Shown piece by piece: positions 3,001-20,047 of a stretch of DNA of 64,000 nt (position 1 is its first letter; each line of letters begins with the position of its first letter). The translations under genes and the position numbers were made by a program. This DNA comes from a virus (lineage: Duplodnaviria; Caudoviricetes). The stretch is taken from the IMG/VR virus record IMGVR_UViG_3300026077_000001; one strand, given 5' to 3'. Below the pieces are notes generated by a model that saw only the letters and a program-made list of their open reading frames with translations, was not told where the DNA came from and searched no databases.

Positions 3001-3578
3001 ATCAGCAGGTTGTACAAACTAATGAGTTCGTAGTTAATATGGATTCAATCTTCTCTAGTTTCTTTAGATATAAAACAGGTAAGGCTGAGTCCTTCCATCA
3101 ATATTGGTTACAACAATCTCTTCTAGGTAATGATGTTCTATTCTATACAGACTACAGAGATCCTCAAGGATTAGAATTTAGATTACGTATAAGAGTTACC
3201 AGACAAGAGTACTATCAAGCAGGTGATGCTTATAAGTTTAAGAAGTATGGATGGTTTGGTAACGTAAGGATGCACTCAGTAACAAGTTATGGTAAGAGGT
3301 ATGCTGAAGGACACATAGCACAGATCTCTTGGCCACCTGAAAGATTGCAGTATACTAATGGTAAGGAACCCAGTTCACCATACTTCCCAGTGCAGACAAA
3401 CTTACCTAAGAAGGTACAGGTGAGAGATGCTACCAACGCAAGGTTCCAACGTAACGCTAGGTATGCAATTTACCAGTCAATGCACGACAAAACCTCTCAA
3501 GTGTGGTATAGTAATCAAAACAGCTATGTACCAACTCAAACGAGATGGTTTGACATCCTAGCAACGGAGGTAGATTAA
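24..3578 (+). CDS. Large virion structural protein with DUF4114-like and DUF5648-like modules
   Basis: 1184-aa ORF; WEDLLNGDDDYND (DUF4114-like) and LYRYYSPESKDHMYST (DUF5648-like) motifs; Cys-, Gly- and Thr-rich beta character. Confidence 0.6.
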   Translation: MSGNNAWFEQNCDPDDVVESTEPVASGGGPIGAPGGGASPNTVNAVIEQLIGQCYGTPIPRKPNFRDDDDDDDDDEFELDWEYLVPTLTGHGWPPPTITKIKLKIPTTDNPGEPNICFAENGEEIKCDHGKDPTLEDCIKEHLKCVFKPYVGGAWKPPAADCDSFVPASMFGTTKKICVQDCVTDRVPVYEHILGDTPTATAAFSDKDTVTVTGSGTCLCTFEHRWKDQEYTAGTAVDTITINGTTFTRSGTRGKTTQTIALTAGNYPITYGGLHPTGGYNIEVNQEYGTNKTVVFRDGHGSDVNGRFSILSSNISSDHMYSLSPTAPAGYLQNSTPMFYAHNVQQARGAFPVYTSYSSMNVDHMLTTDPAGEKATMDSQGFGARDEVLFYGFTDKQDMISEMMDGETPVTLYRYYSPESKDHMYSTTPIGGPPIEANLEEGYYMLSSKAETYLNFTFNCRQGSASYDNTMGFYLCNADDEPVHGRVILENATDASGTFTYKVPVDELNQYIPCKLGFFMIPDGDGRGTSRGDAVTFSTLNGGWRVDQSGSAQNNNTWFSQKHLNPGGKDMTKWPDRTWQYWEDLLNGDDDYNDMKQSYQLRYGDSEYIYEGIQCFVFGVDSNPVYEDITSVDKCEERVFDEQFVNCSMTRTECGAMQEENDYGCSACTGTVAYKMATTQNVTALKNADLEIRSHGGMTGGWGDCTKFTWSLHKNGVQIHSKQEDVSKWKKIGTPLYSFSVIKGDRITWKLDSIDVGHYNGRVTPAMSLRDATTKKFLNTWELLLITQSSSYRTNNPAQNDGNLATHEPTEPCGLPYSIQLYNFEDDGDDEVTKENYTTVLTNQVVQNNVLEVRGGYQTNELKVIGRKPTWQMVNGDTGYINTTGDYGFTVKLQWTMHDDDNGETDWKLIEVIDWGKGGYYVDDECKLFVGKYPEDDDDNSGSFYLGMKVTGINDVECPAAGSTQGRIQDLQLQASHERDQSTPRQLDVLVVDQQVVQTNEFVVNMDSIFSSFFRYKTGKAESFHQYWLQQSLLGNDVLFYTDYRDPQGLEFRLRIRVTRQEYYQAGDAYKFKKYGWFGNVRMHSVTSYGKRYAEGHIAQISWPPERLQYTNGKEPSSPYFPVQTNLPKKVQVRDATNARFQRNARYAIYQSMHDKTSQVWYSNQNSYVPTQTRWFDILATEVD

Positions 3579-3847
3579 TGGATGCAGCAGACAGAAGACT
3601 TGCAAAGTCAATGAAAGAACTCCAAGCAATCAATCGTGGATTGAAGAGAGCAGACGGAGATCAGAGTAAAATGAACAAAGAACTTAAGAAAATAAGGAGA
3701 TATTTTAAAAGTCCCTTAGCAGAGGTTGCAAGATTAGACAATACGCTATATAATATAACGAAACCAACACAAACTGTCCAGGATGAGCACAAAGGAACAG
3801 AAGCAGAGGGGGATAACCCTTCTATTGGAGAGTCTGCACAAACCTGA
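3578..3847 (+). CDS. Hypothetical protein
   Basis: 89-aa ORF coupled by TAATG overlap. Confidence 0.6.
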   Translation: MDAADRRLAKSMKELQAINRGLKRADGDQSKMNKELKKIRRYFKSPLAEVARLDNTLYNITKPTQTVQDEHKGTEAEGDNPSIGESAQT

Positions 3848-3962
3848 TACTAAGCTTAGGAATTGTGCACACAACCAAGAATGTTATAATGAACTCATAA
3901 TGTACAGAGAACAGGTTATTGAATACTGTCAGACATTACTAAAGGAGGTAAACGATGATTAA
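3783..3962 (+). CDS. Small cyanophage hypothetical protein (59 aa, not in ORF track)
   Basis: Hand translation MSTKEQKQRGITLLLESLHKPDTKLRNCAHNQECYNEL...; overlaps both neighbours. Confidence 0.65.
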   Translation: MSTKEQKQRGITLLLESLHKPDTKLRNCAHNQECYNELIMYREQVIEYCQTLLKEVNDD

Positions 3963-6448: not shown

Positions 6449-7172
6449 AGTATGTTTAGTGAGCGTCACACCTGACGCTGAAAAAACAATAGGATACATT
6501 GCAAGAGTATCCAACCCTAAAAACCAAGAGAATCCGAACGTTGAGAAACTCTTAGGTTATTGCATCAAGCACGGACACTGGTCTGTATTTGAGCAAGCAC
6601 ATATGACGTTGGAAATCAACACCACACGTGGTATTGCTGCACAGATCTTAAGACATAGATCATTTACATTCCAAGAGTTTAGTCAGCGTTATGCTAACAC
6701 TGAACTACTTGGTACTACAATTGAACCACCTGAACTGAGAAGACAGGACACTAAGAATAGGCAGAATTCAATCAATGATATCCCCACACATCAGACAGAC
6801 TTCCTCAAGAAGAAGATCGAAAGGTACTTTGCTGAGGGAGTTGATCTATACGATGAACTCATACGTGAAGGTGTTGCGAAGGAATGTGCGAGATTTGTTC
6901 TCCCTCTAGCAACTCCTACCAAGATCTATATGACAGGTAGTGCTCGTAGTTGGATGCACTACATTAATCTACGTACTGCTAACGGTACACAGAAGGAACA
7001 TATGTTGATTGCTGAGTTATGTCAGCGTCATTTCATTTGTAACTTCCCCACCATTGCTAAAGCATTAGACTGGTGTGAAACTGCAACTCAAGATGATGAT
7101 TGCGATTGCGATTACAAGAACGAACACCCCGATGGGTGGGACGATTTGCAGCCGTGCCTAAGAATAGATTAA
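6435..7172 (+). CDS. thyX: Flavin-dependent thymidylate synthase ThyX
   Basis: GHWSVFEQ and RHRSFTFQEFSQRY ThyX motifs. Confidence 0.95.
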   Translation: MTKAKVCLVSVTPDAEKTIGYIARVSNPKNQENPNVEKLLGYCIKHGHWSVFEQAHMTLEINTTRGIAAQILRHRSFTFQEFSQRYANTELLGTTIEPPELRRQDTKNRQNSINDIPTHQTDFLKKKIERYFAEGVDLYDELIREGVAKECARFVLPLATPTKIYMTGSARSWMHYINLRTANGTQKEHMLIAELCQRHFICNFPTIAKALDWCETATQDDDCDCDYKNEHPDGWDDLQPCLRID

Positions 7173-11287: not shown

Positions 11288-12169
11288 TTAATAACCACCA
11301 CCAGAGGAACTAGTTTGAGTAGTTTGAGTAGTAGTATTTGTTTGAGTTGTTGCAATTGTTCCTGCGTCGTTAGGATTTATTGTAGTCGTTGAACTTACAG
11401 TTGTTATTGGTGCTGTACCCGCAGTAGAACTGCCAGATGATATAAGGGCAGTACTAGAACCACCACCTTGAGCAGACCCAGTTGAAGCAGTGCTTTGACT
11501 GGGTTTTCTATATGTTGAGATACCTATGAATTCTTCAGCGATAGATGTTTGTGTCTTCTTATTACCTTGGTCATCAACTTCACCGTGAGGTAGGTACTTA
11601 GCAAGTTTCTTAAATTCATTAATGAAGTCAGTCACATAATCTTCACGTAGCAGATATATATTTCTCTTCTCTTCATTCTTATTGTAGTACACCTCAAAGT
11701 AAGTTACTCCGTGACGACACTCTGCTTTGGGTACTACTGTACCATCAGGTCTGATGTATTGGAAATTCTCATTAACTACAATACCTTCAGAGAATACCTT
11801 AGTTCCATCAGTAGCAAATATATCATTAGATTCATAGTGACTTATAAGATCAACATTACCAAATTCCTGTTCAACATATGCATATAGGTCAGCACGTGTC
11901 ATTGGCCAGTCTTGATTCACGTTGATGATGTTATTAATTATCAACACAATCCAATCAAGACCTGAGTCACCGTAGAATTTACGAGCAACTTGATCTGGTC
12001 TTTCACCTTCTTCTATTTCATACTGTAAGAAACCTAATAGTGGTCCTTGTAGATCATCTTTGATTTTTATTCGTCTAAAGATGTTCCTACACAATTCATA
12101 GGGATGTACACCATCTTTGATGGTTCTGTTACGTACATAAACTTTAGGTAAGTATCTGAAGTATGCCAT
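11288..12169 (-). CDS. gp53: Baseplate wedge protein gp53
   Basis: MAYFRYLP; ERPDQVARKFYGDSGLDWIVLIINNI LysM-like motif; Ser/Thr-rich tail. Confidence 0.9.
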   Translation of the reverse strand: MAYFRYLPKVYVRNRTIKDGVHPYELCRNIFRRIKIKDDLQGPLLGFLQYEIEEGERPDQVARKFYGDSGLDWIVLIINNIINVNQDWPMTRADLYAYVEQEFGNVDLISHYESNDIFATDGTKVFSEGIVVNENFQYIRPDGTVVPKAECRHGVTYFEVYYNKNEEKRNIYLLREDYVTDFINEFKKLAKYLPHGEVDDQGNKKTQTSIAEEFIGISTYRKPSQSTASTGSAQGGGSSTALISSGSSTAGTAPITTVSSTTTINPNDAGTIATTQTNTTTQTTQTSSSGGGY

Positions 12170-13236
12170 TAGCCTCTCACCATTTCTCTTGTAATGAATT
12201 GAGTTTCTTTAAATGTTACTGAAACATCCATAGCAGCAGGACCATAATCCCTTGCTGTATCTGCTCCATCTTTTAATGAATTGTATTGACCGTCAGGTGA
12301 CGTGTTAACAGATAATGTGGACAGTACACACTTCGTAGGGAACCTAATTATCTTAGCAATACCAGCTGGTATCCTTGTAGCGTTATCTGTAGTGGACATC
12401 CTTACAATAGACAGTCTCATAATGTCAGGAATGTTAAGGAATCTAGCACCACCAATATATCCAGATTTACTTGTTAATACATTAGCAACATCTTCATTAA
12501 GGTTACCAAAATCATCTTGACCACCAGTAGAAGGAAGCATTGCAGTCCTTAGTGTTGATATGATTTCATAACATTCTTTTGCTTCTTTAGCATTACGTGG
12601 TGCAAATTTAAAGTTAAAAGCGTGATCTCTATAATTCACACCTTTAAATGTTGTCTCTTGGTATGGGTTGAACACCTTCTTTGATGTTACTGCTAACAGA
12701 TCATTAGCATCTGCAGATCCACCTACAGTACCAAGTGCTGCAGCTGCAGTGTCCATAACAAATTGTGGTTTAGCACTACCAGCAGTTTCTTGAGCAATAG
12801 CAACTGCATCATCCATTGTGTTACCACTTTTTACTGCGTTAGCTAAACCTACGCCAGCAGCACCAAGAGTAGTAACATTATAATTCGTAGAATATTGTTC
12901 ATTTAACCCCACAGGAAGGTATAGATAAATAGTTTTTGAAATGTTGGACATATTAGCACCTTTATAAGGTTCTTTAAATCCACCACCATCACCTGTCCAC
13001 GTATATGGATTTGCACCATTAGCACCCTGAGTCTTATAGATTGTTATTCTTAAATAATCTAAGTACTCGGTTTCATAATTATCATCGCCTCTAATACCAC
13101 TATCGGTGTTTGGTACTTGTCTCGGTAACTGTCTGGGATAAACTAACGGTCCATTTAAAAAGTTGGAACGTTGATTAGTACCAGTATCTTTAAGTAACGA
13201 GTTGAGTGCTTTTGAAAATAGACTTGGAATCGACAT
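12169..13236 (-). CDS. gp48: Baseplate tail-tube cap gp48
   Basis: IYLYLP, VFNPYQETTFKGVNYRDHAFNFKFAPRN, TFKET motifs; synteny. Confidence 0.85.
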   Translation of the reverse strand: MSIPSLFSKALNSLLKDTGTNQRSNFLNGPLVYPRQLPRQVPNTDSGIRGDDNYETEYLDYLRITIYKTQGANGANPYTWTGDGGGFKEPYKGANMSNISKTIYLYLPVGLNEQYSTNYNVTTLGAAGVGLANAVKSGNTMDDAVAIAQETAGSAKPQFVMDTAAAALGTVGGSADANDLLAVTSKKVFNPYQETTFKGVNYRDHAFNFKFAPRNAKEAKECYEIISTLRTAMLPSTGGQDDFGNLNEDVANVLTSKSGYIGGARFLNIPDIMRLSIVRMSTTDNATRIPAGIAKIIRFPTKCVLSTLSVNTSPDGQYNSLKDGADTARDYGPAAMDVSVTFKETQFITREMVRG

Positions 13237-13237
13237 T

Positions 13238-13678
13238 ATGTCCTATAAAAGTTATTCAGGTAGGTTCAAACCATCAAATCCTGCAAAATATAAAGGGGAT
13301 CCCACAAACATTATTTATAGATCTTTGTGGGAGAGGAAATTTATGGTATGGTGTGATAGAAATTTAAACGTTATGGAGTGGGCAAGTGAAGAAATTATTG
13401 TACCTTACATATCTCCTCTTGATAGGAAGCCTCACCGTTATTTCCCTGACTTTTATGTTAAATCGAGGGGAACCAACGGTAGACTCCAAAAGAGAGTTAT
13501 TGAGATTAAACCTTATGCACAAACTCAACAACCGAAACGTGGGAGGAAGACTAAGAAGCTTCTAAAGGAGATTGCCACTTATGGTGTCAATCAAGCAAAA
13601 TGGAAAGCAGCACGAGAGTACTGTAGAGACAGAAAGATGGAATTTGTGATATTAACAGAGCACGAGTTAAAGGTATGA
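13238..13678 (+). CDS. gp4: Head completion nuclease gp4
   Basis: YKGDPTNIIYRSLWE, HRYFPDF, EIKP, NQAKWKAA. Confidence 0.95.
   Translation: MSYKSYSGRFKPSNPAKYKGDPTNIIYRSLWERKFMVWCDRNLNVMEWASEEIIVPYISPLDRKPHRYFPDFYVKSRGTNGRLQKRVIEIKPYAQTQQPKRGRKTKKLLKEIATYGVNQAKWKAAREYCRDRKMEFVILTEHELKV
13312..13319 (-). promoter_or_regulatory. T4 late promoter for gp48-gp53, inside gp4
   Basis: TATTTATA on the plus strand equals TATAAATA on the minus strand, about 75 nt upstream of gp48. Confidence 0.6.
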
Positions 13679-14121
13679 GTCTCTTTGAGGATATAAAAGA
13701 CTTATCAAATGGTAAACCTCAGTCACCTTCTTGGTGGAGGAGTCAGTTATTCTTTGGATTACAAGGACGTGGACTAGATAGTCCATTAATAGGTGCTGCT
13801 ATCACATTCCAATATGATGCTAAATTTGGTGAAAGAATGCAGAAGTGGGATAAATACCCATTAGTATATGTTACTGGAGAAAGTACGAACCACTTTTGGG
13901 GTTCAAATGTACATTATTTACAACCAGCTGCTAGAAGAGCAGGGTTTACACCAGAACACCCACCTCAAACATTCCATAAATACTTGAGGAGTAATGTATT
14001 AAGTCCTTTTTACAACGTTCCAGAATCGGAATGGGATGATATAGGATTGATTCCCTCTGAACAATTCACCGTTACAGTTAACGGAAGAAATATCGACATC
14101 CCGACTAGAATTATATTCTAA
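13675..14121 (+). CDS. gp2: DNA end protector gp2-like
   Basis: FQYDAK...WDKYPLVY...GSNVHYL...HKYL motifs; synteny. Confidence 0.7.
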   Translation: MSLFEDIKDLSNGKPQSPSWWRSQLFFGLQGRGLDSPLIGAAITFQYDAKFGERMQKWDKYPLVYVTGESTNHFWGSNVHYLQPAARRAGFTPEHPPQTFHKYLRSNVLSPFYNVPESEWDDIGLIPSEQFTVTVNGRNIDIPTRIIF

Positions 14122-14861
14122 TGCCACATCGTCACCAAAATTCATTTACTCACTTTAAAGAGTTAGTAGCAACTGGAGCAAAAGAACCTGCTTTAGGTAA
14201 TCTGTACTCCATTGATTTTGGCGTACCACCAATATTCGGGCGTATTCCAGGCTGGGAATTTAATCCATCAGAATATTGTGATGCATTGAATTACTTTGCT
14301 AGTAACGTGACAGTACCATCACGTAACGTTACTACAGGTGAGATACGTAACTTTGGTATTACTAGGACTTATGCTACAGGACAGACTGCGAACGAATTAA
14401 ATATATCTTTTATGGTTACCAAAGATCAGTGGCATAGAAACTTCTATGAGAAGTGGATGAATGCTATGGCACCTGATTCTGAGAATAGAGTTGGTTTCTA
14501 TGATGATTATGTTACTGAAGTATGGGTAAGGAAGTGGGAACGTGGTTCTAACTTATTGTCCAGAACTAGAAGAGCAGGTGTAGATTACTACGGTAGATTG
14601 AATAAAGCAGTTGGTGTATGGTGTTTTAGTGGTGTATATCCATATAATATGGGTACATTAGACTTCTCTAACGATAACAGCAGCGTACTAACACTACCTA
14701 TTTCATTTAAGTTTGAGAGATATAGGTTCACTACTAAGGTACAACGTAATAAGGATTGGACTGGAGATCACGTGGTTAGTGATACAGCAGAGATTGCCAA
14801 GTTATTAGGAATAAAAGACTTTAAGACTTCACAGCACGAAAATACACAGTACGGCGTATAG
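14121..14861 (+). CDS. gp54: Tail tube initiator gp54-like
   Basis: gp19/gp54-fold pattern (YPYNMGTLDFS...LPISFKFE); synteny. Confidence 0.7.
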   Translation: MPHRHQNSFTHFKELVATGAKEPALGNLYSIDFGVPPIFGRIPGWEFNPSEYCDALNYFASNVTVPSRNVTTGEIRNFGITRTYATGQTANELNISFMVTKDQWHRNFYEKWMNAMAPDSENRVGFYDDYVTEVWVRKWERGSNLLSRTRRAGVDYYGRLNKAVGVWCFSGVYPYNMGTLDFSNDNSSVLTLPISFKFERYRFTTKVQRNKDWTGDHVVSDTAEIAKLLGIKDFKTSQHENTQYGV

Positions 14862-14898: not shown

Positions 14899-15603
14899 AT
14901 GCCTTTACCCAAGCTGAGCATTCCAGATTATGAATGCGTGTTACCTCGTGGTCTCAAAGTGACCTATCGTCCATTTTTAGTTAAAGAGGAGAAACTTCTT
15001 TATCTTGCGATGGAGACTCAAAATCAGAAAGAAATGATAAAAGCCGTTAAGGAAATTATCAAAGCTTGTACGAACGTTAAAAATTCTGCAACTCTTGCTA
15101 CTTTTGAGATTGAATACTTATTTTTGAAGATTAGAGGTAAATCTGTTGGAGAAGTAAGTGAATTTAAACTCACTTGCCCTGATGATAATGAAACTCAGGT
15201 CGATGTTGAAGTTAATTTGGATCAAGTAGAAGTACAAATTCCAAAAGAACACACCAATATTATCAAACTTACTGATGAAATCACTTTAACGATGAAATAT
15301 CCTTCATTGGATGTATTCGTTAAGAATAATTTGGTTGATAATCCTGGTATTGATGATGTATTTAAACTAGCAGCAGATTGTACAGATACAATTGCTGATG
15401 GTGAAGAACTACACGAAGCAAAAGACTACAAGAAGGCAGAATTAGTTGCTTTCTATGAGGATATGAACAGTGGACAATTTGCTGAAGTGCAGAGGTTCTT
15501 CGAAACTATGCCTAAACTGTCGAAAGACATCGAGGTCTTCAACCCTAAAACTGAAGTAACCAGTACAGTTAAACTGGAGGGACTAGCAAGTTTTTTCGCG
15601 TAG
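14899..15603 (+). CDS. gp26: Baseplate hub protein gp26
   Basis: MPLPKL, YRPFLVKEEKLL, LKIRGKSVGE, FFETMPKL, LEGLASFF. Confidence 0.92.
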   Translation: MPLPKLSIPDYECVLPRGLKVTYRPFLVKEEKLLYLAMETQNQKEMIKAVKEIIKACTNVKNSATLATFEIEYLFLKIRGKSVGEVSEFKLTCPDDNETQVDVEVNLDQVEVQIPKEHTNIIKLTDEITLTMKYPSLDVFVKNNLVDNPGIDDVFKLAADCTDTIADGEELHEAKDYKKAELVAFYEDMNSGQFAEVQRFFETMPKLSKDIEVFNPKTEVTSTVKLEGLASFFA

Positions 15604-15623
15604 CCCTAGCCCACGACTCGTTG

Positions 15624-15794
15624 ATGAATATGTATGAAGTAAACTTCGCTATGATCCAGCATCATAAGTGGAGTTTAACTGAAATTGAGAATATGATGCC
15701 GTGGGAAAGGGATGTATACGTTAATATGCTACTTCGGTACCTTAGAGAAGAAGAACGTAGGCAGAAACAAGGTCAAATGAGTCCATCTCTTTAA
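15624..15794 (+). CDS. gp51: gp51-like hub assembly protein (56 aa, not in ORF track), possibly read as a -1 frameshift extension of gp26
   Basis: MNMYEVNFAMIQHHKWSLTEIENMMPWERDVY; frame is open back to the slippery site at 15591. Confidence 0.8.
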   Translation: MNMYEVNFAMIQHHKWSLTEIENMMPWERDVYVNMLLRYLREEERRQKQGQMSPSL

Positions 15795-18010
15795 TGGCAA
15801 AGATAAAGATCAGATCCTTTTTACCATCGAAAGTTACAGGAGACATTCGAACAGATCCTACAGCTGCGATGACCGTACAAATCAATCGTTTAGGATTTGT
15901 GGTGGAGGATATTGGTAAATTAGTAGCCTGTATGTATGAAGAGAAATTAGATGCTGTACAAGATAATAAAAGGAAGAGGACACTATCACGGGATAAGTCA
16001 CGTGAGGATAATATAGAGAAGAAGGTACAGAAGAAAGTAGCAGATAAAGCACAGAAAGAATCTGGCAATGCAGATAAGAAGTCAGGCACTTGGTTACAGA
16101 AGTTATTGGCACCATTCAAATGGTTAGCAGAAAAGGCTTTAACCTGGTTTGCTTTGGACTGGCTGTCTAATCCAGACAATAAAAAGTTTATAGGTACGAC
16201 ACTTAATGTTATAGGTAAGTGGTTAGGGACATTCTGGAATGTATTCTCTAAAGGTGTTGGTTGGTTACTAGAAGCATTTAGTGAGAAGAGTCCAGTAATG
16301 GGTGCTCTTAAGATACTTGGTGGTATCGGAGCATTATTTTTAGCAGATAGGATACTTCAACCGTGGAAGTTACTTGGTGATTTCCAGAAGTTAAGTAAGT
16401 TCCTAGGACCAGGAATTGATAAGTTAGGAAAAGCACTTCAACAGGTAAAACCTGGTCAGTTGGCAAAGAACTTTGTCACCAACCCAATGGCAATGTCACT
16501 AACTGCTGGTGTTGTATCAACAACCACTAGATTAGCAGCAGGTGATGATGCTGACGTTGCTATTGGTGCAGGTATTGGTGCTACTGTCACGTCACTTGGA
16601 TTGACTGCACTGTTAACACCCATATTAGGACCATTTGCTCCTATAGTGGGCAGTATGCTTGGTGGTTTTATAGGAGATAAGATTGGTGCATTCCTTGGTG
16701 AAGCAATGAGACCTGTCTTTGGTCCCATTAAAGATTACTTTGTTGATGTATGGTTCCCAGCTATGAAGGCATTCATAGAACCAATTACTGGACCTGTGAT
16801 GGATTTCTTCCAAGAATTTCTACCAGTAATGAAGAAACTTGGAGAGTTCTTACAACCTATAGCTGAGTCAGCAATAGTAGAGATTGGTAAGTTCTTAGGT
16901 GGAGTTGCAATGGTTCAGTTTCAATCATTAGTATGGATAATTAAGCACGGTGCTAGAGCTATAGCTGATTTTGTAGAAGGTGCAGGTGATCTTGGATCAC
17001 GTATTGATATTGCTGGTGTATGGACATCTGATGTTGATAAAGCAGGTCAAGAGTTTAGAGATAGAGAGAGGGAAGTTAAAAATCATAAGAGATCTATAGA
17101 AGATTCCAAGAAGAAACTTGGAGAATTGATACAACAAAGAGATGAAGACGGTAAAGGTGATGATAATTGGAAAGGATGGGGTTGGAGATTTACCATTGGA
17201 GAACGTATCGAATTTGAAAAAGAACATATAATGAATCTTGAAAAGCAGCTTATACAAAGGGAGGCTGCTGTTATTAAAGCAAAAGAGAAGTGGGAACTTG
17301 AAAAGGAAATTGCTCAACAGGAAGCTGAGGAGGCTAAAGTATTAGCTGCTGAGAACTTAGCTATTGGAGATGGGGGTCATATTGTTACTTCAGAAGCAAT
17401 GAGAGATCGCCAGATGCAATTATCACCTGGTATGCATATGGGTGTAGATATTGCCACACAGATTGGTGAAGAACTTAAAGCGTTCTTAGGTGGTACAGTA
17501 CAACACGTAGGATATGATGAAGGATATGGTAATTATATTGCTTGGACATCTAGTGATGGTTTAGGTCAGTTATATGCTCATATGAAGGATATGTCACCAT
17601 TTAAAGCAGGTGATACATTCCAAGCAGGAGCAATACTAGGTTATTCAGGTGAGACTGGTAAAACTACTGGTCCTCATCTACATTGGGAGACATCAAAGAA
17701 TCCTCTTGATGTTGGTAAACCAAATACTGATCCTTTAAGTAGAATAAATCCTTTAGGTTTATATGGTAAAGAATCTCCATTCACAGGTAAACAAGAACCT
17801 GTTACTGAGATTACACCTACCAATGGTAATGAAGGGGGTGGACTAAATAATGAATTGATAGAGAGGTCTATTACAGAAGCATCCCAACAATGGAAAGGTT
17901 CTACCACTAATACTCAATTCATTGTTCAACCAGTGGTTAAGGAGGTCGTTAAGACTAACCAAACTAACGTCTCGGTTATTACTAAACCAGCATCTATAAG
18001 CATAAATTAA
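15794..18010 (+). CDS. Tape-measure/hub-like protein with C-terminal M23 peptidase
   Basis: Amphipathic Gly-rich helices; HMGVD, YGNY, YAHM, TGPHLHWE M23 motifs. Confidence 0.8.
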   Translation: MAKIKIRSFLPSKVTGDIRTDPTAAMTVQINRLGFVVEDIGKLVACMYEEKLDAVQDNKRKRTLSRDKSREDNIEKKVQKKVADKAQKESGNADKKSGTWLQKLLAPFKWLAEKALTWFALDWLSNPDNKKFIGTTLNVIGKWLGTFWNVFSKGVGWLLEAFSEKSPVMGALKILGGIGALFLADRILQPWKLLGDFQKLSKFLGPGIDKLGKALQQVKPGQLAKNFVTNPMAMSLTAGVVSTTTRLAAGDDADVAIGAGIGATVTSLGLTALLTPILGPFAPIVGSMLGGFIGDKIGAFLGEAMRPVFGPIKDYFVDVWFPAMKAFIEPITGPVMDFFQEFLPVMKKLGEFLQPIAESAIVEIGKFLGGVAMVQFQSLVWIIKHGARAIADFVEGAGDLGSRIDIAGVWTSDVDKAGQEFRDREREVKNHKRSIEDSKKKLGELIQQRDEDGKGDDNWKGWGWRFTIGERIEFEKEHIMNLEKQLIQREAAVIKAKEKWELEKEIAQQEAEEAKVLAAENLAIGDGGHIVTSEAMRDRQMQLSPGMHMGVDIATQIGEELKAFLGGTVQHVGYDEGYGNYIAWTSSDGLGQLYAHMKDMSPFKAGDTFQAGAILGYSGETGKTTGPHLHWETSKNPLDVGKPNTDPLSRINPLGLYGKESPFTGKQEPVTEITPTNGNEGGGLNNELIERSITEASQQWKGSTTNTQFIVQPVVKEVVKTNQTNVSVITKPASISIN

Positions 18011-20047
18011 ATGACAGCAATAAGCAAGGTTAGATTCTTTAAAATGGTGACTCCGCCTGACAAGTCGGATGATACCAAAGTTTCTGTTGGAAATAAAACT
18101 ATAGCAGGTAGTAGTTTTTCTACAACTATATCTGCTATTAATTCTTTAGGTGCTACAGTTAATAGTATTGCTGTAGCAATAAAAGAAGTTAAGGATCAGA
18201 ATAAGCGTCAAGTTGACCGTCAGAAAAGAAATGCTGCTTTAGCATCTGATGCTGCTAGAGAGAAGAAGTTAGAAGCAGATAAAGATGGTGGTGGTGATGA
18301 TAATACAGTAGCGAAGCTTGTTGGAGGAGGACTGGGATTCTTAGGGAATCTTATGAAGTTCTTCAAGGGTCTTATAATGTACAAGGCTCTTGATTGGATT
18401 AGTGATCCTGCTAATAGAGAACGAGTAAAAACAACGTTAGAAAGAATTAAAAAGTTTTGGGAGATGTTAGTTGGTGCATTTACTAAACTAAGCAATTGGA
18501 TTGGAGAGAACTGGGAGAAGACGTTTGGTGAAGATAAGACCTTAATAGAAAGGTTACAAGGAATAGCTGGGCTTACAGGAGCATTAGCTGGACTAGCATT
18601 TCTAGCAAATCCAGTAGGTTTCATTAGTAATATCACTGGCATCCTTCAGATGGTTGGTGGTGGTATTGTTAACCTTGGTAAGTTCTTAGGTGGGAATACT
18701 GTTGGTAGATCTCTATTGGCAATTGGTCAAGGAGTTGAGGCTTATAATAGAACACTAAATGATGAAACGATAGCAGAAGAAGATAGACAGTCAAGTGCTA
18801 TAGGTGCTGGTGTTGGTAGTACTACTGGATCAATGGTTGGTAGTACTATTGGTGCTAGTTTCTTAGGACCTATTGGTGGTATTATTGGTGCTGCTCTTGG
18901 TGGATTTATAGGTGAGAACGTTGGTAAGTTTCTTGGTCCTATTGCTGAGGACTTCTTTAAAGGAATTAAGGAGGTCTTTGATGTGGTTATGGAATGGTTC
19001 GAGAAACTTATGGAACCATTAAAACAAGCAGTATCAGAGGTATTTGAAGCACTTGGTCCTGTAATGCAAACGATAGTCGATAAACTTAAAGAACATATGC
19101 CTTTCATTGAAAAGGTAATGGGTATTTTAGGTACGGTTGTCTTTGGTCCTTTGATTCTGTTGCTTAAAGGTTTGACTGGTCTACTCAAATTAGTACCAAC
19201 AGAGTCTGAGATGAATGAAATAAAGGATGGACAGGAGACTAATGGTGATACACCAGAAGCAAGTAAGGGTGGAATAATACCGTACAGATCTATTGGTGGT
19301 ATCGTTCCATTCAATATGGACTTTAAACTACCTGAGAGAAGTCAAGGTGGTTGGATAAGTGGTCCTCAGTCTGGTTATCCTGTTAGTCTGGATGGTAGAG
19401 GTGTTGATTTCATTGGTCACGGACTAGAGTACGTTGCAAAGAGATCGTCAGGTGGATTTGTTATACCCGTTGACACACCACACACCCGTAGAGATCCTGG
19501 TTTAACTAAGAGAAAAGCAGTTCAAGCAAATGCATTTGGATACAAGGTTCCTGGCTTCTCTGAAGGTGGTAAGATTAATATTGATAAACTTGTTACATCT
19601 CCAGTACTTAATTTACCTGAATTTAGTACTGGTGGATTAGCTTTAAGTGGAGGAGAGTCTGATTCTGCGATAATGAGACAAATGATAGGATCTGGAATGC
19701 TTACATCTCCAGTAACAAATTCTATTAGTGTAAATTTGACTGGAGGGGAGTCTGATTCTAATATATTGTTAAAGGCGATCAAAGCTCAACAGAATAATGT
19801 TGGACAGAATCTTAATGATCTGGTTGGTAGAGTTAAGGATGCAGCCTCCTCAGTAACCTTGACTGGAAATGAGTCTGATTCTCAAATAATGTTAAAGGCA
19901 ATCAAAGCTCAACAAGAGCAAGTTCCTCAAGATGTTACTGAAATACCTATCACTAGAGAAGGTAAGCGTAACCCTGCAGCACCATTCTTAGTAAGTAGAT
20001 TCGGTAGAAATGCTGAGTCTAGTAACCCAGTAAGCAACTTCTTATGA
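18011..20047 (+). CDS. Tape-measure/hub-like paralog
   Basis: Architecture similar to the preceding gene; GGIIGAALGGFIG glycine-zipper. Confidence 0.65.
   Translation: MTAISKVRFFKMVTPPDKSDDTKVSVGNKTIAGSSFSTTISAINSLGATVNSIAVAIKEVKDQNKRQVDRQKRNAALASDAAREKKLEADKDGGGDDNTVAKLVGGGLGFLGNLMKFFKGLIMYKALDWISDPANRERVKTTLERIKKFWEMLVGAFTKLSNWIGENWEKTFGEDKTLIERLQGIAGLTGALAGLAFLANPVGFISNITGILQMVGGGIVNLGKFLGGNTVGRSLLAIGQGVEAYNRTLNDETIAEEDRQSSAIGAGVGSTTGSMVGSTIGASFLGPIGGIIGAALGGFIGENVGKFLGPIAEDFFKGIKEVFDVVMEWFEKLMEPLKQAVSEVFEALGPVMQTIVDKLKEHMPFIEKVMGILGTVVFGPLILLLKGLTGLLKLVPTESEMNEIKDGQETNGDTPEASKGGIIPYRSIGGIVPFNMDFKLPERSQGGWISGPQSGYPVSLDGRGVDFIGHGLEYVAKRSSGGFVIPVDTPHTRRDPGLTKRKAVQANAFGYKVPGFSEGGKINIDKLVTSPVLNLPEFSTGGLALSGGESDSAIMRQMIGSGMLTSPVTNSISVNLTGGESDSNILLKAIKAQQNNVGQNLNDLVGRVKDAASSVTLTGNESDSQIMLKAIKAQQEQVPQDVTEIPITREGKRNPAAPFLVSRFGRNAESSNPVSNFL

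Follow-up and report, generated by a model that had tools for sequence, protein, structure and literature searches.

The gp26 and gp51 genes of a T4-like cyanophage as a probable single tail assembly chaperone gene with a predicted programmed −1 frameshift

The −1 frameshift of lambda G/GT, and the conservation of such a frameshift among tail assembly chaperone genes, are described by Levin (1993) and by Xu, Hendrix and Duda (2004). For T4-like phages, poly-T slippery sequences are reported as known −1 signals in the genes for the short chaperone form, TAC-N (PMC12846349, citing Vladimirov et al. 2022), and some of these phages are reported to have two genes in place of a frameshift, a short one and a separate one for the long fusion (PMC10274946, citing Vladimirov et al. 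2022). In T4, gp26 and gp51 have been classed as hub assembly chaperones (Leiman et al. 2010, PMC3004832), and gp51 is needed for tail assembly and is absent from the particle (PMC3004832). The initial annotation of the locus described here knew of no earlier treatment of gp26 and gp51 as a frameshifted pair. That remark is contradicted by Vladimirov et al. 2022, as this work is cited in PMC10274946 and PMC12846349, and by the record of Acinetobacter phage Octan (MT409116), in which both gp26 and gp51 are annotated as "tape measure protein assembly chaperone". As far as the citing papers describe it, the 2022 work deals with the same gene family and the same TAC-N/TAC-NC idea as the pair presented below, and the frameshift principle seems to have been published there for T4-like phages. 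Two cyanophage papers that we consulted contained no mention of gp26, gp51 or a frameshift.

We analyzed a stretch of viral DNA of 64,000 nucleotides (IMG/VR record IMGVR_UViG_3300026077_000001), referred to below as the window, in which PHROG and Pfam scans identified the tail and baseplate module of a T4-like cyanomyovirus. According to these scans, the gene order in the window is a tube-like gene, an overlapping chaperone pair and tape-measure-like genes. The features that enter the analysis are the following, with coordinates given on the window.

11288-12169, minus strand: gp53-like wedge gene (PHROG/Pfam scans)
12169-13236, minus strand: gp48-like tube cap gene (PHROG/Pfam scans)
13202-13678, plus strand: gp4-like head completion gene (PHROG/Pfam scans)
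13675-14121, plus strand: gp2-like end protector gene (PHROG/Pfam scans)
14121-14861, plus strand: tail-tube-family gene, gp54-like tube initiator (phrog_45 tail tube, E 5.8e-42)
14899-15603, plus strand: gp26-like ORF, putative short chaperone form (TAC-N), 234 aa, ending ...LEGLASFFA and stop (ORF list, PF12322, phrog_150)
14899-15794, plus strand: coding span of the predicted long form (TAC-NC), 298 aa, with the junction ...LEGLASFF followed by RVALAH... (predicted fusion)
15570-15572, plus strand: TAA of the −1 frame, which is open from 15573 (−1-frame translation)
15576-15581, plus strand: SD-like GGAGGG within Leu-Glu-Gly codons, its GGAGG (15576-15580) ending 10 nt 5' of the heptamer (sequence)
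15591-15597, plus strand: slippery heptamer T_TTT_TTC, gp26 codons agT TTT TTC (sequence)
15597-15794, plus strand: −1-frame extension, 65 codons and TAA, elsewhere annotated as a small "gp51" (phrog_634, −1-frame translation)
15601-15603, plus strand: gp26 0-frame stop TAG, one codon past the heptamer (sequence)
15621-15794, plus strand: small ORF matching phrog_634, "baseplate hub assembly catalyst" (gp51), E 3.3e-25 (PHROG)
15794-18010, plus strand: tape-measure-like gene, 738 aa, with a C-terminal M23 peptidase domain (PHROG tape-measure/endolysin families; PF01551)
18011-20047, plus strand: tape-measure-like gene, 678 aa, with a glycine zipper (PHROG tape-measure; PF13488)

The gene of Cronobacter phage S13 that occupies the position equivalent to 14121-14861 is annotated as gp54. 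BLASTP of the 738-aa, 678-aa and 246-aa neighbors against T4 gp27, gp28, gp29, gp48 and gp51 detected no similarity, and because these comparisons were empty, the tape-measure assignment of the neighbors is taken from the PHROG hits only. The two consecutive large genes between 15794 and 20047 both match tape-measure PHROGs, and either of the two could be the one that measures tail length. The stop codon of gp51 overlaps the ATG of the 738-aa gene (TAATG, 15792-15796), so that termination on the long form could be coupled straight to translation of the first tape-measure-like gene. When the locus was compared with phage records by megablast, only a 231-nt stretch of 75% identity was found, in P-RSM6.

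The position of the window pair, between a tube gene and a tape-measure gene, is that of lambda G/GT (and also of P2 E/E+E'), and in both cases the −1 extension is without a conserved start codon of its own. The N-part of gp26 shares the chaperone fold of the G/GT-type proteins, as described below, and no sequence similarity between gp26 and lambda G is detectable. Unlike lambda G, the gp26 protein of the window is larger (234 aa) and has extra domains after a chaperone-fold domain of about 90 residues. The heptamers also differ, being U_UUU_UUC in the window and G_GGA_AAG in lambda, and a 0-frame stop fixed one codon downstream distinguishes window-type sites from the lambda site.

As the initial annotation had pointed out, gp26 ends with AGT TTT TTC GCG TAG, in which T_TTT_TTC (15591-15597) lies in the X_XXY_YYZ phase of the gp26 frame. 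The site was compared among 80 IMG/VR loci with a gp26 protein identity of 47-96%, which together with the window provided 81 distinct junctions. In this alignment of gp26 ends, a comparison that had been suggested along with the frameshift claim, both the heptamer and an open −1 frame were kept in all 81 junctions. Each junction has the form nnT TTT TTC, one codon, then stop. The residue that precedes the two phenylalanines varies (S, A, N, D or G), yet its codon invariably ends in T (AGT, TCT, GCT, AAT, GAT or GGT). The background usage of Phe codons in these genes is 69% TTT and 31% TTC, and the conserved Leu and Gly codons beside the heptamer are represented by four to six synonymous codons. 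Synonymous sites are saturated around the heptamer and frozen inside it. The 81 lineages are related, and the counts are therefore of non-independent events; the contrast between the heptamer and the adjacent codons holds regardless of lineage independence.

The heptamer is not confined to the loci closest to the window. T_TTT_TTY, together with an open −1 frame that codes for a tail resembling gp51, was also found in Pseudomonas phage pf16, Stenotrophomonas phage Moby, Cronobacter phage S13, Vibrio phage vB_VmeM-32, Ochrobactrum phage OC and Synechococcus phage ME01; the run consists of six T residues in the window and of seven in pf16, VmeM-32 and OC. All 81 junctions, and five of the distant phages, have the 0-frame stop exactly one codon 3' of the heptamer. 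ME01 (locus L087, 3690-3710) differs in that no codon lies between heptamer and stop (GAT TTT TTC TAG). The gp26-like gene of Vibrio phage VAP7 (Ackermannviridae; locus L090, 2190-2420) ends with CAC GTT TTT CGC TAA; its GTTTTTC is out of X_XXY_YYZ phase, but the −1 frame is nonetheless open into a gp51-like tail, which suggests that the VAP7 site may be a single-tRNA slip variant of the same recoding.

One could argue that the heptamer and the open frame are juxtaposed by chance and have no function, given that a lone TTTTTTC is ordinary in a 64-kb AT-rich window. Seven copies were counted there (at 6480, 10128, 15591, 40956, 48725, 50400 and 56757), compared with 14.6 ± 3.5 expected from dinucleotide-preserving shuffles of both strands, and this scarcity, if anything, fits an avoidance of slippery runs outside the programmed site. 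One TTTTTTC does not exceed chance expectation, and the weight rests on its position and on its invariance in relatives. The position and sequence of the motif are fixed in 81 of 81 junctions, and the motif persists in distant families. In addition, the −1 frame is open in every case, and its product is colinear with T4 gp51, as shown below. Judged by these comparative data, a chance juxtaposition appears to be effectively refuted already, and we assign it a negligible probability.

The reading of the −1 frame directly into gp51 was borne out by translation. No stop interrupts this frame between 15573 and the TAA at 15792-15794; it reads FFRVALAHDSLMNMYEVNF..., and the fusion computed from it is 298 aa, close to the approximately 299 aa that the initial annotation had claimed. 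In relatives, the −1 frame opens 0-21 codons 5' of the heptamer, and in every complete locus it continues from the heptamer for 62-71 codons before it reaches the gp51 stop. Conserved residues of the −1 frame start at the slip site itself (F1, F2, R3, H8, L11, N18 and F19) and continue further on (H25, K26, P37, W38, E39, Y43 and L47). An AF2 model of the 65-residue extension showed a small helical domain (pLDDT 79.5).

If gp26 and gp51 were ordinary genes, gp51 would be translated solely from its own TTG at 15621 or ATG at 15624, or by termination-reinitiation, and the T run would be kept for Phe-Phe only. Nine GenBank records with the same-strand arrangement do show gp26 as a plain CDS, with the downstream ORF either a separate small CDS or unannotated, and many relatives have an ATG 5-8 codons past the heptamer, near the gp26 stop, from which some independent or re-initiated translation is possible. 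However, TTG 15621 and ATG 15624 are the earliest possible starts in the −1 frame of the window, and both lie 3' of R3 and H8; the conserved R3, H8 and L11 of the extension are located before or at the first start codon. No ATG, GTG or TTG is present ahead of extension codon 10 in 19 of the 81 loci, several loci have no start until codon 20-21, and one (L056) has none before codon 35, positions that lie within the conserved domain. The conserved residues ahead of the starts and the loci with no early start argue that an independently initiated gp51 cannot be the conserved product. Furthermore, Phe-Phe requires neither TTT TTC in 81 of 81 junctions nor a T-ending codon across five amino acids, and T4 gp51 has this same C-domain in frame on a gp26-like body. 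We consider it very improbable that the two reading frames are expressed only as ordinary genes.

The relationship to T4 was examined at the level of both genes. The gp26 protein of the window matched the Pfam profile PF12322 (T4_baseplate) with an E value of 4.5e-67 and 226.4 bits (cut-off 24.5), over profile positions 2-219 of 219, and T4 gp26 (208 aa), which ends with GLKEFFELL, belongs to PF12322 as well. T4 genes 26 and 51 are separate and divergently transcribed, and therefore no frameshift can join them; their products are paralogues over approximately 160 residues (E 2e-6). Pairwise BLASTP aligned residues 13-278 of the 298-aa predicted fusion with residues 7-244 of T4 gp51, through the junction, and hhalign of 79 predicted fusions against five T4-type gp51 proteins aligned positions 12-280 with 6-246 of 249 (98.9% probability, E 2.6e-17). 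T4 gp51, with which the predicted fusion is thus colinear on both sides of the junction, would correspond in a single reading frame to what the frameshift produces, and T4 gp26 would correspond to the short form. T4 has two paralogous genes (gp26, 208 aa, and gp51, 249 aa), whereas in the window one gene and a −1 shift would give both products; there is a single PF12322 body at this locus, followed by the −1 extension, and a T4-style second full-length gene is absent from the locus. Two full genes were found in T4, Octan, 44RR2.8t, KFS-EC and RB16, and in Octan, 44RR2.8t and KFS-EC their layout is that of T4. Our comparisons agree in this respect with the short gene and separate long gene reported for some T4-like phages (PMC10274946). 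Escherichia phage RB16 (locus L092, 1501-2794) has a third layout, 54-51-26-25 on one strand, with a full-length 51 followed by 26.

The gp26 protein was modeled with AlphaFold2 from a 49-sequence alignment (pLDDT 87.5, pTM 0.81), and the model was compared exhaustively with 48,161 representative PDB chains by VIA-align. The top three matches were 3FGX, 2OB9 and 3KLU, with Z scores of 7.4, 7.0 and 6.9, and the next match had a Z score of 4.7. Each of the three covers 82-83 residues with an rmsd of 3.9-4.2, and pairs gp26 residues 1-93 with most of the target. These make up the set of solved chaperone structures that the literature names, which includes 2OB9 (the HK97 gp13 tail assembly chaperone) and 3KLU (YqbN). 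In a Foldseek search of the PDB with the same model, no match reached significance (best E value 0.48; 2ob9_B at rank 31 with a probability of 0.47). Although a Z score near 7 is modest when taken alone, the assignment of a tail-assembly-chaperone fold to the modeled N-domain of gp26 is credible, because the hits are cleanly separated from the rest and all three are chaperones.

The −1 frameshift of E. coli dnaX has an SD-like element about 10 nt upstream and a downstream stem-loop. The likeness to dnaX that the initial annotation had drawn holds in part: GGAGG ends 10 nt before the heptamer in the window, which is a spacing known to stimulate −1 shifts, but this geometry is not conserved across relatives. 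A GAGG core is present in 60 of the 81 junctions, GGAGG at a spacing of 10 in 25 and GAGGG at a spacing of 9 in 35, and the remaining 21 junctions have only AAGG or AGGA at the SD-like position, so that, unlike in dnaX, the element is weak or absent in a quarter of the relatives. The Glu codon at this position is GAG in 60 of 81 junctions, compared with 34% among the other Glu codons that precede Gly in these loci (binomial p 4e-13 with relatedness ignored). The upstream SD-like element is enriched and non-invariant. Window-type sites further differ from dnaX in their slippery sequence and in having no conserved downstream stem-loop. RNAalifold on 51 junctions found 0 conserved pairs downstream, and the downstream fold of the window alone (MFE −18.9 kcal/mol, z −0.33) gave no stem-loop or pseudoknot signal. 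The fixed 0-frame stop one codon past the heptamer may matter mechanistically; its position is also constrained by the overlapping residues of the −1 frame. One could envisage that the cyanophage site is a minimal, structure-free −1 cassette whose efficiency is set by the invariant stop and the SD-like GAGG, in hosts where SD sequences otherwise play a small part, a suggestion that we put forward tentatively and consider doubtful. Such a minimal cassette may be absent from the 2022 paper on T4-like chaperone genes.

An alternative is transcriptional slippage, by which RNA polymerase would add one U in the T6 run and a minor mRNA would encode the long form. The conserved element is a homopolymer (T6 in the window; T7 in pf16, VmeM-32 and OC), and conservation of the run fits either mechanism. 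Slippage by bacterial RNA polymerase generally requires runs of about 8-9 or longer, and six T residues are short by that measure. In addition, the exact X_XXY_YYZ phase, the SD-like element enriched 9-10 nt upstream and the fixed nearby stop are features of relevance to ribosomes rather than to the polymerase. A contig from an RNA library (X15, 15568-15814) has an unaltered T6; since minor variants are lost from contigs and the library may contain DNA, this is weak evidence at most and indicates neither transcription nor a lack of slippage. Given the shortness of the run and the features around it, which are of the kind that act on ribosomes, we regard slippage of the polymerase as unlikely.

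The claim of a programmed −1 frameshift that joins gp26 to gp51 in a G/GT-like manner is supported by the invariance of the heptamer, the open −1 frame, the colinearity with T4 gp51, the fold and the gene order. What the analysis shows is the heptamer site with its conservation, an open −1 frame, an end-to-end match to T4 gp51 and the chaperone fold of the gp26 model, and we conclude that gp26 and "gp51" very probably constitute one recoded tail-assembly-chaperone gene with a predicted programmed −1 frameshift.

From these features we infer the slippage itself, along with its efficiency, stimulators and binding partners. Most ribosomes would translate 14899-15603 only, which yields the 234-aa short form (TAC-N). 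In a minority, a slip by −1 would occur with two tRNA-Phe on UUU UUC of U_UUU_UUC (15591-15597), after which both tRNAs would re-pair with UUU. Position 15597 would then be read twice, the second time as the first base of CGC (Arg), and translation would proceed through CGC GUA GCC to the TAA at 15792-15794. The product would be the 298-aa long form (TAC-NC), which carries the 65-residue helical C-terminal domain. Stimulation would likely come from the SD-like GGAGG on the 5' side and from the 0-frame stop one codon past the heptamer, and a conserved RNA structure would not be involved. If the pair works as lambda G/GT does, the N-part common to both forms would coat the tape-measure protein, whose gene follows immediately, and the extra C-domain would couple the tape-measure complex to subunits of the tube family. 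By analogy with lambda, neither form would be part of the virion.

By tblastn, 553 phage records were found to encode a gp26 of the type described here. Among the nine GenBank records with the same-strand arrangement that were inspected, none had a joined gp26-gp51 ORF; the long form is never annotated in these records, and even the small ORF is sometimes missing (S-WAM1, S13). The unannotated gp51-like −1 ORF lies at 3702-3893 in S-WAM1 (locus L081) and at 3211-3375 in Cronobacter phage S13 (locus L085). The S-WAM1 record also starts gp26 about 38 codons too late (3115, compared with a match at 3001). For this locus, the public annotations of T4-like cyanophages appear to be incorrect.

As the idea seems to be in print already, what is gained here is chiefly a better annotation and a set of details on the site, namely the invariant heptamer, the spacing of the stop, the partial SD-like element and the lack of RNA structure. 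The site would be a clean natural example of a −1 frameshift signal that operates without a downstream RNA structure. With gp26 and gp51 read as one recoded gene, the T4 superfamily would follow the rule, nearly universal among long-tailed phages, of producing two forms of the tail assembly chaperone, and the long-puzzling genes 26 and 51 of T4 would be explained as the two-gene version of the chaperone pair.
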